From: a virus
Direction: 5' to 3' (one strand)
IMG/VR virus record: IMGVR_UViG_3300028048_000053
Location: 1 to 34,691 of that record
DNA: 34,691 nucleotides
The position numbers were made by a program, and so were the translations under genes. Positions 4,734 through 34,691 of this stretch are shown here, piece by piece. The notes beneath the pieces were generated by a model. It saw nothing but the letters and a program-made list of their open reading frames with translations, was not told the DNA's origin and did not search any database. Within the stretch, counting starts at the first letter, position 1. Every line of letters starts with the position of its first letter.

Positions 4734-4801
4734 CCCAAAAATTTTTCAACTTTTTTCACAAAACCTATTGACATTTCAGAAAAACCTGCTATAATAGGTA
4801 G

Positions 4802-4880
4802 TGTCAAGGGGAGAAGAAAACAACCTCTCACAGGCGCGTAACCTGTTGTAAGTAAAATAAAATCTCTCATAAAAATGTAA
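4802..4880 (+). ncRNA. candidate short transcript from promoter TTGACA 4768-4773 / TATAAT 4790-4795 with no ORF
   Basis: hairpin ACAGG-cgcgtaa-CCTGT; no SD or ATG. Confidence 0.25.
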
Positions 4881-4927
4881 AAAACCCCTTGACAATTCCC
4901 CGTAAGTGTGTTATACTTAAACCATCA

Positions 4928-32909: not shown

Positions 32910-33095
32910 ATGCATACCTTTCATTCTCAGGATAAATACAATTTCCATCACAATGGAGATTTTTCCGGTGACGTGATAATCACTAAGGATGATGACACTA
33001 ATTTTGAAATTGAAATTAGTAGTCAAGCTCTTCTTGAATATGCTCGTTATGTAATTGACTCTGTTCTTACAGAAAAAATTGAAGACATTATGTAA
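32910..33095 (+). CDS. hypothetical protein (61 aa) between tRNA-Tyr and tRNA-His
   Basis: GAAGGAGATTATTATG; in frame with ORF 32859..33095. Confidence 0.55.
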   Translation: MHTFHSQDKYNFHHNGDFSGDVIITKDDDTNFEIEISSQALLEYARYVIDSVLTEKIEDIM

Positions 33096-33096
33096 T

Positions 33097-33174
33097 GGTG
33101 GGAGTAGCTTAGTTGGCTAAAGCACCAGATTGTGGCTCTGGGGACCGCGGGTTCAAGACCCGTCTCTCACCCCA
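33097..33174 (+). tRNA. tRNA-His (GUG) with encoded G-1 pairing to C73, CCA encoded
   Basis: manual fold: acceptor GTGGGAG/CTCTCAC, anticodon stem CCAGA/TCTGG with loop TTGTGGC, T arm GCGGG-TTCAAGA-CCCGT. Confidence 0.7.
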
Positions 33175-33215
33175 TTTATGCCTCCTTAGCTCAGCTGGTC
33201 AGAGCACGCGGCTGT

Positions 33216-33682
33216 TTGCCTGACCTTACATTCTTGATGAAAAAGAAAAATGAATAGTAAGCAAAAAGGCAATATTACTGAATTAGAAACAATGTTAGCG
33301 TTTTTAAAACATGGTTTTAATGTTTTAACTCCTTATGGAGATTGTGAAAGATATGATTTTGTAGTAGACGCTAACAGAAAGTTTTATCGAATTCAGAGTA
33401 AAACAGCAAGCACAGAAGACGATGGAGCTTCGTTTAAGTTTTCTTGTAGGAGCTCAAATCGTCAAGATGGTAGAATAGTCCATCACCAATATACAAAAGA
33501 TGAAATTGACTATTTCGTAACTTCTTTTGAAGGAAAATGTTATTTAATTCCAGTTGAAGAATGTGGTTGTGATAAACGACTTCGTCTTTTTCCTACTAAA
33601 AATGGACAAACAAGAGGAATAAGCTGGGCAAAAGATTATGAAATGGAGGAAGTAATCAAGAATTGGTAAGCTGATGTGCAAG
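33216..33682 (+). mobile_element. 467-bp insertion in the tRNA-Asp anticodon loop carrying an endonuclease-like ORF; group-I-intron-like boundaries (5' exon ends in T, insertion ends in G)
   Basis: boundaries inferred from tRNA cloverleaf; only ~47 nt of the insertion lie outside the ORF, so the intron class is unresolved. Confidence 0.5.
33250..33669 (+). CDS. putative homing endonuclease of the PD-(D/E)XK / Hjc-like fold (139 aa) encoded inside the tRNA-Asp insertion
   Basis: pattern E11..LK.GF.V..P.GD..RYDFVVD....FYRIQSK resembles small restriction-endonuclease-fold nucleases; ORF track. Confidence 0.45.
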   Translation: MNSKQKGNITELETMLAFLKHGFNVLTPYGDCERYDFVVDANRKFYRIQSKTASTEDDGASFKFSCRSSNRQDGRIVHHQYTKDEIDYFVTSFEGKCYLIPVEECGCDKRLRLFPTKNGQTRGISWAKDYEMEEVIKNW

Positions 33683-33906
33683 CAACCGCGGTGTCGTAGG
33701 TTCGAATCCTACAGGAGGCGCCAGGCCCGTGGATCCGAGGGCACAGTATCGGACAAAATACGCTGGCATATCGTAGAGAGTGCGCAATCTCAAATATGCG
33801 ATACCGCTATTCGTTGGGGCGGGATATAAATGCAGCAACGACAGGTCGCTTGAACCTGATTGATCCTGTCGGCGGTACGGGAGAAGAAAAGCATCCGCTG
33901 TTTTAT

Positions 33907-33982
33907 AGGGGATTGGTGTAGTAGGGAGCATCTGCGCCTCCAAAGCGTTAGAGAGAGGGTCCGAGTCCTTCATCCCCTGCCA
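33907..33982 (+). tRNA. possible tRNA-Trp (CCA), weak (several G-U pairs, T-loop TCCGAGT)
   Basis: acceptor AGGGGAT/ATCCCCT perfect, discriminator G, CCA encoded, anticodon loop CTCCAAA; D and T arms non-canonical. Confidence 0.35.
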
Positions 33983-34256
33983 ATAGTGAGTCGTTTAAGC
34001 AAGACTGCGGCCATGGTAACGCAATGTTGGGTAGCGACCGGCACCAACCTCACTATTATATGCCTCGGTAGTTTAGCAAGTAAAACGGTGGACACATATT
34101 TTTATGTGGCTGCAAGTGGATGGAGCGTGGCCGTCTCGGGGCACCAACGGCAAGGTGGCGTAGCGTGAGCTACAAGTGCGAATGACTGAACGCACTAAAA
34201 ACTGGCAATGGGCAAGCCTTCTGTATAGTAAAACCAAGAAGTCTATTTTTTAATAT

Positions 34257-34331
34257 GCCGGGGTCATATAGTGGTTAGTATGCGGAACTGATAATTCCGT
34301 CATGGCAGTCCGACTCTGCCCCCTGGCACCA
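34257..34331 (+). tRNA. tRNA-Ile (GAU), CCA encoded
   Basis: acceptor GCCGGGG/CCCTGGC, anticodon stem CGGAA/TTCCG with loop CTGATAA, T arm GGCAG-TCCGACT-CTGCC. Confidence 0.7.
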
Positions 34332-34413
34332 TAAATCTCAGCTGAGATAGGGATAGCTCTGCGTTTGGAGTAGCATTTCAGTCGTCGGGGGCGGAGCGCT
34401 GAGATTTTTATAT

Positions 34414-34489
34414 CCCGCTGTAGCACAATCGGTCAGTGCCGGCAACTTATAATTGTCAGATGCTGGTTCAAATCCAGACAGCGGGACCA
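34414..34489 (+). tRNA. tRNA-Ile (UAU) (AUA decoder), CCA encoded
   Basis: acceptor CCCGCTG/CAGCGGG, D arm GCAC..GTGC, anticodon stem GGCAA/TTGTC with loop CTTATAA. Confidence 0.55.
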
Positions 34490-34569
34490 AAAACCTTGTT
34501 AGTTAGTGGAGAATAGCAGCGAGGTTTGCATTAAATTAATAAAGACACATACAGCAATTTATACTTGAA

Positions 34570-34640
34570 AGTATATTAGTCCAATGGTAGGACGCAAAAG
34601 TTTTAATTTTGAAGAATTGGTTCAAATCCAATATTTACTT
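34570..34640 (+). pseudogene. degenerate tRNA-like sequence (anticodon loop GTTTTAA, Lys-UUU-like) lacking CCA, with an acceptor mismatch
   Basis: D stem GTCC/GGAC, anticodon stem CAAAA/TTTTG, T arm ATTGG-TTCAAAT-CCAAT; acceptor AGTATAT/ATTTACT has 1 mismatch. Confidence 0.3.
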
Positions 34641-34691
34641 TTTGGTGTCTTGATTTTTATAAAAAAATATAATATAATAATTATAGAAAAG

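Follow-up and report, generated by a model that had tools for sequence, protein, structure and literature searches.

Analysis of the window, meaning here the whole 34,691-nt stretch of viral DNA that was examined, revealed a tRNA gene on the plus strand that is split in its anticodon loop by a 467-nt insertion encoding an endonuclease, as the preliminary description had proposed. A tRNA-His gene ends 5 nt upstream of the split gene, and the spacers on its 3' side (33724-33906 and 33983-34256) showed no more structure than shuffled sequences. Among the ten largest ORFs (open reading frames) of the window, a search for an RNA ligase gave no Pfam match and only uninformative PHROG matches. The features of the locus are as follows.

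33180-33216, plus strand: 5' exon of a predicted tRNA-Asn(GUU) gene (cloverleaf parse; ARAGORN with the intron option), comprising the acceptor 5' strand, the D arm, the 5' strand of the anticodon stem and C32, U33, G34, U35 and U36
33213-33219, plus strand: 5' strand of helix Pa (U33, the anticodon G34 U35 U36 and insert nucleotides +1 to +3), pairing with 33678-33684 (RNAfold)
33217-33683, plus strand: mobile insertion (homing-endonuclease cassette) of 467 nt between tRNA positions 36 and 37, starting with UGCCUGACC and ending with GUGCAAGC; boundaries taken from L035, L225 and the phages EFP01 and EFDG1
33220-33224, plus strand: 5' side of a conserved internal loop, CUGAC (YUGAC in most Asn-type cassettes, from flank listings)
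33225-33238, plus strand: 5' strand of the distal stem, consisting of Pb (CUUAC) and Pc (AUUCUUGAU) and lying in the 5' untranslated region of the open reading frame (ORF) (RNAfold)
33250-33669, plus strand: ORF of 139 aa, predicted PD-(D/E)XK homing endonuclease of the I-Ssp6803I family (PF11645; Pfam, PDB and Foldseek)
33655-33670, plus strand: 3' strand of the distal stem (AUCAAGAAU, a UG bulge and GUAAG), formed by the last ORF codons, the UAA stop codon and the next G
33671-33677, plus strand: 3' side of the internal loop, CUGAUGU, whose UGA is the ORF stop codon in some relatives
33678-33684, plus strand: 3' strand of helix Pa, consisting of the last six insert nucleotides (GCAAGC) and A37 (RNAfold)
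33684-33723, plus strand: 3' exon of the predicted tRNA-Asn gene (cloverleaf parse; identity to L035 and L225), comprising A37, A38, the 3' strand of the anticodon stem, the variable loop, the T arm, the acceptor 3' strand, the discriminator G and an encoded CCA

The two halves pair without mismatch in the acceptor (7/7), D (4/4), anticodon (5/5) and T (5/5) stems. Neither ARAGORN with default settings nor Rfam called the split gene, and ARAGORN with the intron option joined both halves into a single gene at exactly 33180-33723 with an intron of 467 nt. The gene had been described as tRNA-Asp(GUC) interrupted between positions 35 and 36, and this assignment is ruled out by empty-site alleles: every uninterrupted allele with these exons carries GTT and none carries GTC. 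The uninterrupted tRNAs at L035 and L225, which have matching exon sequences, contain the loop CTGTTAA and are tRNA-Asn(GUU). A 27-nt segment of the 5' exon, covering the D and anticodon arms up to U35, is identical to the intact L035 tRNA-Asn, with U36 also matching, and the 3' exon is identical over its first 14 nt to L035 and over its first 26 nt to L225. The homologous site in EFDG1 is annotated as tRNA-Asn-GTT, and removal of the insert yields a 7-nt loop (CUGUUAA) and a cloverleaf whose body is that of uninterrupted Asn genes. On the basis of these intact cognates, and of the filled and empty sites of EFP01 and EFDG1, the interrupted gene is identified from sequence as tRNA-Asn(GUU) with the insertion between U36 and A37, one base away from the boundary drawn earlier. 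A T does precede the insertion, as U36, but the terminal G reported with it does not stand: the insert begins with U and its final nucleotide is C33683 (A or C in relatives), so that the group-I-like U...G ends were a product of the misplaced boundary. A separate, intact tRNA-Asp is present at several loci.

The ORF matched Pfam PF11645 over the full length with an E value of 5e-31 (108 bits against a cutoff of 26.1) and the sequence of I-Ssp6803I in the PDB (2OST) with an E value of 1.9e-6. Foldseek analysis of its AlphaFold2 model also returned 2OST as the best match (TM 0.74), so that the restriction-endonuclease-like fold suspected from motifs in this 139-aa ORF was borne out by both sequence and structure comparison. 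Residues E11, D36, Q49 and K51, at the acidic and Q-x-K catalytic positions, were unchanged in 17 and in 23 homologues in two comparisons. The product is thus predicted to be a PD-(D/E)XK endonuclease of the I-Ssp6803I family and a putative site-specific DNA cutter. It has 598 protein relatives, and distant PF11645 relatives in phage My1, Salmonella phage SM5 and halovirus HSTV-4 are free-standing genes adjoining tRNA genes. Free-standing homing endonuclease genes, such as those of the T4 SegB and T5 F-Tfl enzymes, are a familiar component of phage tRNA clusters. The cassette resembles them as a selfish nuclease gene in a phage array that presumably targets the tRNA genes of relatives; they, however, occupy intergenic positions and do not interrupt the tRNAs, whereas the cassette has its place within the anticodon loop, where a covarying stem encloses it.

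Homology searches recovered 106 copies of the ORF, about 90 of which likewise lie inside a split tRNA, and the split arrangement is therefore not a chance observation. The more than 90 mapped cassettes came from gut, rumen and Enterococcus phages and occupied the 36/37 site of tRNA-Asn, -Ile, -Lys or -Thr genes. In the Enterococcus phage EFP01, a homologous cassette interrupts a tRNA-Asn-GTT gene exactly at the boundary of T36 and A37. EFDG1 and more than 60 schiekviruses, with flanks 94-98% identical to those of EFP01, have this gene intact; the exons of the filled and empty alleles are identical, and target duplication is absent. L001 (filled) and L213 form a second presence/absence pair at one site. 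The cassette was carried by only 3 of the roughly 55 tRNA-Asn genes that share one scaffold type, and L005 and L009 share the same cassette and untranslated region with different tRNA-Asn bodies. At L015, three cassettes occur in one array, with both visible tRNA-Lys genes among their hosts. The insertion is a mobile element with presence/absence polymorphism at one exact site.

RNAfold analysis of 33180-33723 predicted a stem of 5 + 7 + 5 + 9 bp interrupted by a single mismatch, an internal loop and a 2-nt bulge, and a matching architecture was found in 69 distinct cassettes. Throughout the more than 90 mapped cassettes, the two ends together with loop nucleotides 33-36 build a long stem that extends the anticodon stem. 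In helix Pa, AGC at the insert end pairs with the anticodon GUU. Pair counts over 63 distinct junctions showed that 97.1% of cells were paired, a value reached in none of 500 shuffles; in Asn, Ile, Lys and Thr hosts, the final three nucleotides of the insert show covariation with the anticodon, and the U33-A37 pair is invariant. C33220 and G33676 also covary, being replaced by A and U at L015. The internal loop, as read from the sequence, has the potential for a stack of C-G, U.U, G.A and A.G (CUGA opposite UGAUG); a standard kink-turn or box C-D-like motif has a 3-nt bulge and then tandem sheared G.A pairs beside a canonical stem, and the loop here has 2 nt versus 1 nt, not 3 versus 0. The CUGA/UGAUG motif is missing from Ile- and Lys-type cassettes. 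In the distal stem, the mean duplex energy was -12.9 kcal/mol for a cassette's own 5' and 3' flanks versus -5.9 kcal/mol when flanks were swapped between cassettes, and a compensatory example is seen in L010, where CUCAC pairs with GUGAG and the stop codon is UGA. The stem has the size of an RNase III-type substrate (at least about two helical turns, mostly paired). Its two junctions lie 3 bp apart in a continuous helix free of bulges, and a search of the stem for a bulge-helix-bulge (two 3-nt bulges around a 4-bp helix) found none. The covariation indicates that the stem is selected to pair with the anticodon. Target-site duplication was considered as a source of the anticodon complement and rejected, as it predicts a direct repeat and an inverted one was observed.

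A search with the group I intron model RF00028 across 33000-34691 at E ≤ 10 found no group I core, and Rfam at the gathering score returned no ribozyme match at 20 related loci. The same search scored the true tRNA-Leu group I intron of the related phage L010, used as a positive control, at 47.4 bits (E 3.5e-11). Synonymous variation extends along all 139 codons, with mild dips only at codons 16-30 and 126-139. The sequence outside the ORF amounts to 47 nt, as against the roughly 180 nt or more of RNA-constrained sequence expected of a group I intron, in agreement with the earlier remark that this is too little for a normal group I ribozyme. Of the ends expected of group I introns, the U that closes the 5' exon is present and the G at the end of the insert is absent. 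These analyses argue together against a hidden group I core, and the cassette is predicted to be without a self-splicing group I ribozyme. Inspection by eye also led us to reject a small ribozyme (hammerhead, hairpin or other) at the CUGAUG motif, which does not occur in all cassettes: only two helices are present, and a CUGAUGA...GAAA core is lacking. We know of no small self-cleaving ribozyme family that the two-helix internal loop matches, judging from comparison by eye with consensus motifs.

The closest known counterpart is the Synechocystis tRNA-fMet intron that encodes I-Ssp6803I, which shares with the cassette the PF11645 family, a tRNA anticodon stem-loop as target and an insertion at the edge of the anticodon triplet. 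The Synechocystis element measures 655 nt with a 150-codon ORF (PMC1995217), which leaves about 200 nt for its ribozyme, and is located at position 33/34 (PMC13011429); the phage cassette, in contrast, has 467 nt with about 47 nt outside the ORF, lies at 36/37 and has neither a ribozyme nor a terminal G. In Patescibacteria, group I introns occur at 35/36 of tRNA-Asn and tRNA-Asp; they are 184-894 nt long, self-splice in vitro, have U...G ends and mostly carry no endonuclease genes (PMC13011429). The phage cassette differs from these in its 36/37 position and the absence of a ribozyme. The two cases are alike in that the interrupted tRNA-Asn is overlooked or mis-assigned by standard tools, an ARAGORN boundary shift confusing Asn with Asp. 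Standard tRNA finders miss or mis-type such genes and thereby distort phage tRNA inventories.

The explanation we favour, at a probability of about one half, is that the insertion is a ribozyme-less homing-endonuclease cassette residing in its own target, which is not spliced and whose stem clamps the tRNA halves into a tRNA-shaped, processable transcript. The I-Ssp6803I-type enzyme would cut the uninterrupted tRNA-Asn genes of co-infecting phages beside the anticodon, and repair would then copy the cassette exactly into 36/37, destroying the recognition site and so rendering the carrier immune. The interrupted gene would be transcribed together with the tRNA array. We infer that the RNA stays unspliced because no bacterial mechanism for its splicing is known, and this phage tRNA-Asn copy would then be lost for decoding. 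The cassette ends would have evolved complementarity to one another and to loop nucleotides 33-36, prolonging the anticodon stem to about 26 bp with the ORF looped out. Such a stem may hold the halves in the normal acceptor/T/D body, and RNase P and 3'-end enzymes could still excise the split unit from the tightly packed array; the product would be a separate mRNA for the endonuclease, capped with tRNA structure, which a double-strand RNase (for example RNase III) might shorten further. That the tRNA is inactivated by a homing endonuclease gene had been listed among the options in the preliminary description; it is now the best-supported default, although that version lacked the covarying anticodon stem.

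Damaged alleles count in favour of the unspliced cassette. They include a D arm with 8 nt duplicated (L012), C33 (L004/L055), a GCU anticodon (L073), broken or indel-bearing anticodon stems (L038, L064/L066), an acceptor mismatch (L036) and remnants (L080, L095), none of which would be tolerable in a tRNA that decodes. The odd T loop ATCGTAA of L001/L002 was examined as a further sign of decay and set aside, as it belongs to a scaffold widespread among intact phage tRNAs. A neighbouring tRNA lies within 10 nt upstream in 11 of 50 cases and downstream in 13 of 64, and since only about one fifth of split tRNAs are closely abutted, the array-processing argument is not valid for all of them. Other observations count against the unspliced cassette. 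Most split tRNAs are as healthy as intact ones, with no difference in anticodon-stem mismatches per tRNA (0.23 versus 0.20), and three dead tRNAs at L015 would cost the phage.

These last observations speak for protein-dependent splicing, the main rival, in which the cassette would be a true intron of a kind new to bacteria and phages; we regard this as unlikely. A different splicing mechanism was also among the options of the preliminary description. The stem would present both junctions to an endonuclease with a 3-bp stagger astride the paired anticodon, the tRNA body would hold the halves, and an RNA ligase would seal them into a working tRNA-Asn. The endonuclease could be that of the host or the phage or, conceivably, the cassette's own dimeric nuclease. 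In this last version, both strands of the helix would be cut with the 3-nt stagger, possibly by the PD-(D/E)XK dimer, a member of the fold superfamily that also contains the archaeal splicing endonuclease, and a phage or host ligase such as RtcB would reseal the loop. The tracking of the anticodon by the insert 3' end in four isoacceptor families, with U33-A37 held constant, resembles by analogy the protein-spliced pre-tRNAs of eukaryotes; eukaryotic and archaeal pre-tRNAs have an anticodon-intron helix like the covarying cassette stem. The junctions stand astride the anticodon with a 3-nt 3' stagger, and I-Ssp6803I reportedly cuts DNA with a 3-nt 3' stagger flanking the anticodon, as Bonocora and Shub are said to have found in 2001. 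EFP01 encodes an RtcB ligase (PF01139, E 3e-59), and no second tRNA-Asn was found in its 16-kb array. The same or related arrays contain further anticodon-loop insertions that have no ORF and no ribozyme match, some of them shaped like mini-tRNAs. The hosts of these ORF-less insertions possibly include suppressor tRNAs.

Several points weigh against splicing. We know of no candidate splicing endonuclease, and the archaeal one is absent from bacteria. Archaeal bulge-helix-bulge introns are spliced by proteins, and some carry homing endonuclease genes. The cassette is like them in having no ribozyme, in its position in or near the anticodon loop, in a terminal helix whose loop holds the ORF, and in anticodon-intron pairing. 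The archaeal enzyme, however, requires two 3-nt bulges 4 bp apart, whereas the cassette helix is continuous, and the hosts here are bacterial (Enterococcus for EFP01), with no splicing endonuclease known. RtcB requires 2',3'-cyclic-phosphate and 5'-OH ends, but double-strand RNases and PD-(D/E)XK enzymes produce 5'-phosphate and 3'-OH ends. The ligase is confirmed only in EFP01 and in two viral contigs nearly identical to it (99% and 98%); scanning of other cassette-bearing contigs for RtcB matched only close relatives of EFP01 and is uninformative about co-occurrence. Lesioned and chimeric alleles persist, and the cassette is rare among alleles. A precedent for splicing of this type exists in animals, where DNA transposons are removed from mRNAs through pairing of their inverted ends and sealing by RTCB (SOS splicing; PMC12779559). 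This parallels a mobile element with pairing ends and the RtcB of EFP01, but SOS splicing is an animal nuclear process dependent on AKAP17A and CAAP1, with no counterpart shown in bacteria or phages.

We consider it improbable that the stem is a mere double-strand RNase target that frees the endonuclease mRNA and leaves the tRNA pieces associated but nicked. The irregular 26-bp stem with its asymmetric internal loop, as supported by RNAfold, does recall phage RNase III sites. Bacterial 23S rRNA intervening sequences, which RNase III removes without ligation, offer a plausible processing route and are likewise stable-RNA insertions with a long end stem; a fragmented 23S rRNA is functional, however, whereas a tRNA broken at the anticodon loop is not. 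The inclusion of the anticodon in the helix is left unexplained by an RNase target. For the tRNA, this alternative is a sub-case of the unspliced cassette, because a nick in or close to the anticodon loop leaves a tRNA unable to decode.

Very improbable is a compact self-splicing intron, whether with a group I core overlapping the ORF, an option offered in the preliminary description, or with a novel small ribozyme built from the conserved CUGAC/CUGAUGU loop and its flanking helices: the U at the 5' exon end, the occurrence of PF11645 genes in group I introns of tRNA-fMet and tRNA-Arg (PMC13011429) and the near-invariant internal loop of Asn-type cassettes are consistent with it, but RF00028 found nothing at E ≤ 10 while scoring its positive control, synonymous sites vary throughout the ORF, the final insert nucleotide is C or A and never G, and the Ile-type, Lys-type (second L015 copy) and TTTTA-type cassettes have the stem only and no loop motif.

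In the textbook view, a homing endonuclease gene within an essential RNA is carried by a self-splicing intron, and every bacterial tRNA intron is a ribozyme. The large and diversified family described here departs from this view, its endonuclease gene lying naked in the anticodon loop and wrapped in a stem that pairs with the anticodon. The cultured pair of EFP01 (filled) and EFDG1-like phages (empty) makes the question of splicing directly testable. If the cassettes are unspliced, phages would put up with a selfish gene that systematically deprives them of tRNAs while keeping the array processable, and the transcript would be a natural tRNA-scaffolded mRNA. If they are spliced, they would represent the first pathway of protein-dependent tRNA splicing in bacteria or phages, and splicing by RtcB would provide a physiological substrate for the bacterial or phage enzyme, bearing on the long-standing question of RtcB function.

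Direct reading of positions 33180-33723 revealed a tRNA gene in two halves, GCCTCCT TA GCTC AGCTGGTCA GAGC A CGCGG CTGTT on the 5' side and AA CCGCG GTGTC GTAGG TTCGAAT CCTAC AGGAGGC G CCA on the 3' side, with 467 nt between them and all tRNA stems pairing perfectly across the gap. Neither default ARAGORN nor the Rfam tRNA model recovered this gene; with the intron option, ARAGORN placed it at [33180,33723] exactly and gave it an intron of 467 nt. The perfect stems and the single gene found in intron mode bear out the preliminary description in treating the halves as one tRNA, whereas its Asp identity and its junction had to be revised. The rest of the window holds small phage genes without known function and has a tRNA array at its end.

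Features of the window
33180-33723: split tRNA gene
33250-33669: endonuclease ORF, 139 aa, the only long ORF within the insertion
33724-33906, 33983-34256 and 34332-34413: inter-tRNA spacers, unusually long and GC-rich

The anticodon loop admits three closures, which would specify Asp (CTGT+CAA), Asn (CTGTT+AA), or Ala (CTG+GCAA). Three independent lines of sequence comparison show that the window tRNA, called Asp in the preliminary description and by ARAGORN, is Asn with the insertion between positions 36 and 37. Uninterrupted tRNAs with the same exon sequences read CTGTTAA in viral contigs (L035, L225). The cultured Enterococcus phage EFP01 carries a homologous cassette (60% protein identity), and more than 60 schiekviruses with flanks 94-98% identical to EFP01 lack ~460 bp at this spot, which is annotated as tRNA-Asn-GTT; alignment of EFP01 with its empty-site relative EFDG1 showed that the exons are identical, that T36 and A37 directly flank the cassette, and that the target is not duplicated. 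Finally, relatives yield sensible tRNAs only with the 36/37 geometry (CTTTT/AA, Lys; CTGAT/AA, Ile; TTTGT/AA, Thr). The window insertion therefore spans 33217-33683, begins with U and ends in C, and does not lie at 35/36 with a terminal G as first proposed. The same Asn/Asp boundary confusion by ARAGORN was recently described (PMC13011429), there with genuine group I introns located at 35/36.

Along its whole length the ORF matched Pfam PF11645 (PDDEXK_5; E 5e-31), and it also matched the homing endonuclease I-Ssp6803I, whose structure is solved (PDB 2OST, E 1.9e-6). The known structure closest to the AlphaFold2 model of its product (mean pLDDT 73) was again 2OST (TM 0.74, E 2.5e-8), followed by Hjc resolvases, in line with the restriction-endonuclease-like character noted earlier. 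Residues E11, D36, Q49, and K51 were invariant in two homologue sets, and the family comprised 598 proteins at E<=0.001.

A search of viral contigs, metagenomes, and genomes yielded 106 ORF copies, ~90 of which were parsed as split tRNAs; in every one, position 36 closes the 5' exon and A37 opens the 3' exon. The host tRNAs were mostly Asn, with Ile(GAU), Lys(UUU), Thr(UGU), a TTTTA type, and one probable Val, and the sources were human gut, rumen, and one Enterococcus phage. In T5-like, Vi1-like, and haloarchaeal viruses, relatives at ~30% identity are free-standing genes that directly adjoin tRNA genes. Living on tRNA genes is a trait of the entire family, and the cassette clade has moved into the anticodon loop. 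The cassette is uncommon among alleles, being present in 1 of ~66 schiekviruses and in 3 of ~55 alleles of one tRNA-Asn scaffold. In contig L015, paralogous cassettes split three tRNAs of a single phage array within 3.4 kb. Contigs L005 and L009 have ORFs 97% identical and the same untranslated region in different, internally complementary exons, which shows that the cassette moved between diverged tRNA-Asn bodies. Cassette ORFs of TAG-reassigning phages contain in-frame TAG codons; in L021 (ORF start 3001) and L026 (2998) there are several, at conserved positions, which indicates that these phages reassign TAG. tmRNA genes are present in L023, L026, and L029. Other extra genes, including HNH endonucleases, occupy the tRNA-Asn/Gln/Ser neighbourhood in phiSHEF16 (L226 1112-1690) and phage 113 (H29 region), and this schiekvirus array seems to be a hotspot at which selfish nucleases settle.

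Features of related loci (L-numbers)
L015 1575-2125, 2933-3475 and 4405-4950: diverged PF11645 genes in Thr-UGU, Lys-UUU and Lys-UUU, respectively
L217 40218-41462 (EFP01, NC_047796 140218-141462): RtcB-family RNA ligase (PF01139, E 3e-59)
L217 30100-31280 (EFP01): two metallophosphoesterase genes, ~9 kb upstream of the RtcB gene
L010 4833-5138: 218-nt group I intron at 34/35 of a phage tRNA-Leu(UAA) (RF00028)
L012 4887-5020 and 4069-4190; L101 196-321; L213 complement 4785-4916 and 379-519; L148 complement 361-514: ORF-less loop insertions
L132 complement 948-1119; L193 complement 907-1079; L117 4680-4836; L027 3882-4030: recurrent 74-95-nt loop insertion
L016 4367-4471 (also L017, L018): ORF-less 31-nt plain hairpin after C36 of a tRNA-Gly(UCC)-like gene
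L001 5734-6381; L020 3930-4516; L023 4611-5235: ROOL RNA genes (RF03087, 265-341 bits)

In RNAfold, the whole precursor of the split tRNA retained the cloverleaf and prolonged the anticodon stem (z = -5.25).

Elements of the prolonged stem
Element 1: C32/A38 mismatch
Element 2: 7-bp helix of U33-A37, G34-C, U35.G, U36-A and three insert-insert pairs
Element 3: internal loop, CUGAC opposite CUGAUGU
Element 4: 5-bp helix that includes the stop codon
Element 5: 9-bp helix of the 5' untranslated region with the last codons

The same fold was obtained for all 69 distinct cassettes despite widely differing distal sequences. In an ungapped alignment of 63 distinct junctions, 97.1% of cells were paired, compared with 66.1% in shuffles (0/500 as high); pairing fell to 34-44% when the partner column was slid, and in 11 of the 12 pairs both partners had changed. 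The final three nucleotides of the insert track the anticodon (AGC/GUU, AUC/GAU, AAA/UUU, AUA/UGU). Distal helix duplexes averaged -12.9 kcal/mol with their own flanks and -5.9 with swapped flanks, the own flank being the best partner in 39 of 69 cassettes. The internal loop is nearly invariant among Asn-type cassettes and absent from other types; its first and sixth positions covary, its UGA is the ORF stop codon in some relatives, and it appears not to match the standard kink-turn.

We give a probability of roughly one-half to the reading that the RNA of the interrupted gene remains unspliced, that the phage forfeits that tRNA, and that the stem clamps the halves together. The enzyme, judging from its family, would cut intact anticodon stem-loops beside the anticodon. 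I-Ssp6803I reportedly leaves 3-nt 3' overhangs flanking the anticodon; by that geometry, 36/37 would be the top-strand cut and 33/34 the bottom-strand cut. The I-Ssp6803I intron sits at 33/34 (PMC13011429). Brought together by the stem, the unit would retain its acceptor/T/D body, and RNase P and 3'-end enzymes could still resolve the array, in which the nearest tRNA is <=10 nt away in about one-fifth of cases (only 5 nt in the window, from the end of an upstream tRNA-His). Processing would also set free the endonuclease mRNA as a separate RNA capped by structure, which RNase III might cut further. Some alleles carry damage that a decoding tRNA could not have (a duplicated stretch in the D arm, C33, a GCU anticodon, a disrupted anticodon stem, mismatches in the acceptor stem, or reduction to bare remnants), and these damaged alleles and the rarity of the cassette support this reading.

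Removal of the cassette by protein-dependent tRNA splicing is the main rival reading and, in our estimate, clearly the less likely of the two. Anticodon-intron pairing, seen here across four anticodons, is a hallmark of protein-spliced pre-tRNAs, and both junctions are symmetrically staggered by 3 bp, but the bulge-helix-bulge motif is absent and there is no candidate splicing endonuclease. The exons are mostly as clean as those of intact tRNAs, and without splicing L015 would be left with three dead tRNAs, yet damaged alleles persist. EFP01 encodes an RtcB ligase, no second tRNA-Asn was seen in its array, and in animals mRNA transposons are removed via paired terminal repeats and RTCB (PMC12779559); however, the end chemistry expected of double-strand nucleases is unsuited to RtcB. 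Related arrays also contain ORF-less anticodon-loop insertions without a ribozyme match, several of them mini-tRNA-shaped and ending in ACCA.

A group I intron or other recognisable ribozyme, including the compact intron with a core overlapping the ORF suggested earlier, was rejected because Rfam gave no match, the terminal G is absent, and the ORF varies synonymously throughout. No intron or ribozyme family was detected in 33000-34691 (E<=10), and 20 related loci gave none at gathering score. As a positive control, the genuine L010 intron was detected by the same search in the same mode at 47.4 bits (E 3.5e-11), slightly below the gathering score of 50, indicating adequate sensitivity in this kind of phage. 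A terminal G is universal among group I introns. The ORFs of twelve Asn-type cassettes differed by 13-26% of nucleotides, with synonymous changes along all 139 codons, mild dips only at codons 16-30 and 126-139, and no 150-200-nt stretch constrained as RNA. The I-Ssp6803I intron is 655 nt with an ORF of 150 codons (PMC1995217).

The ORF-less insertions of L012, L101, L213, and L148 measure 45-77 nt and interrupt Leu-UAA, Ser, Thr, Arg, and a possible CUA suppressor. Mini-tRNA folds are clearest in both L012 inserts and L101, with a 7-bp acceptor-like stem from the first insert nucleotide, a T-arm-like hairpin, and a discriminator plus CCA directly before the 3' exon; the L148 and L213 Thr inserts have a similar terminal stem and ...ACCA tail, and the L213 Ser insert showed no such fold in RNAfold. 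Units of this shape could be cut out by RNase P and 3'-end enzymes, after which a ligase would be needed, and these insertions may be an undescribed intron type. The recurrent 74-95-nt insertion combines a TTAGTTTAA motif with a GAGTGCAAxxCTC hairpin; ARAGORN types some of its host tRNAs as SeC(tca), and these may be opal suppressors. The L016 hairpin, which prolongs the anticodon stem of a gene still scored at 50 bits by the Rfam tRNA model, could be a cassette remnant or a small intron.

A scaffold with D arm TAGCTCAGAGGCAGAGC and non-canonical T arm GAGAT-ATCGTAA-TTCTC is widespread among phage tRNAs, occurring in L121-L216 (96 viral contigs; L213, L140, and L125 are examples), and serves Asn, Met, Ile, Lys, and other anticodons. 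ARAGORN assigned 'anticodons' of 2 or 4 nt (tt, at, tgtt, tatg) to tRNA-like genes in L003-L009 and L028, indicating anticodon loops of unusual length in several arrays. ROOL RNA genes adjoin cassette-bearing tRNA arrays, including that of EFP01, and are absent from the window. The window spacers had no Rfam match; 33724-33906 and 33983-34256 were not structured above shuffles (z +0.3, +0.6), 34332-34413 forms a long hairpin (z -3.2), and two copies of a GGCACCAAC motif lie near 34040 and 34140.

Our analysis has shown that the endonuclease cassette is mobile, occupies a fixed site, is polymorphic in presence and absence, lacks a ribozyme, and has a selected RNA stem. In the searchable literature we came across no report of an endonuclease cassette that lacks a ribozyme and lies in the anticodon loop of a bacterial or phage tRNA. 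Protein-dependent splicing, if true, would be categorically new. If the RNA is unspliced, the cassette would be a homing endonuclease gene of the kind known from phage tRNA clusters, now inside its target with an RNA clamp.
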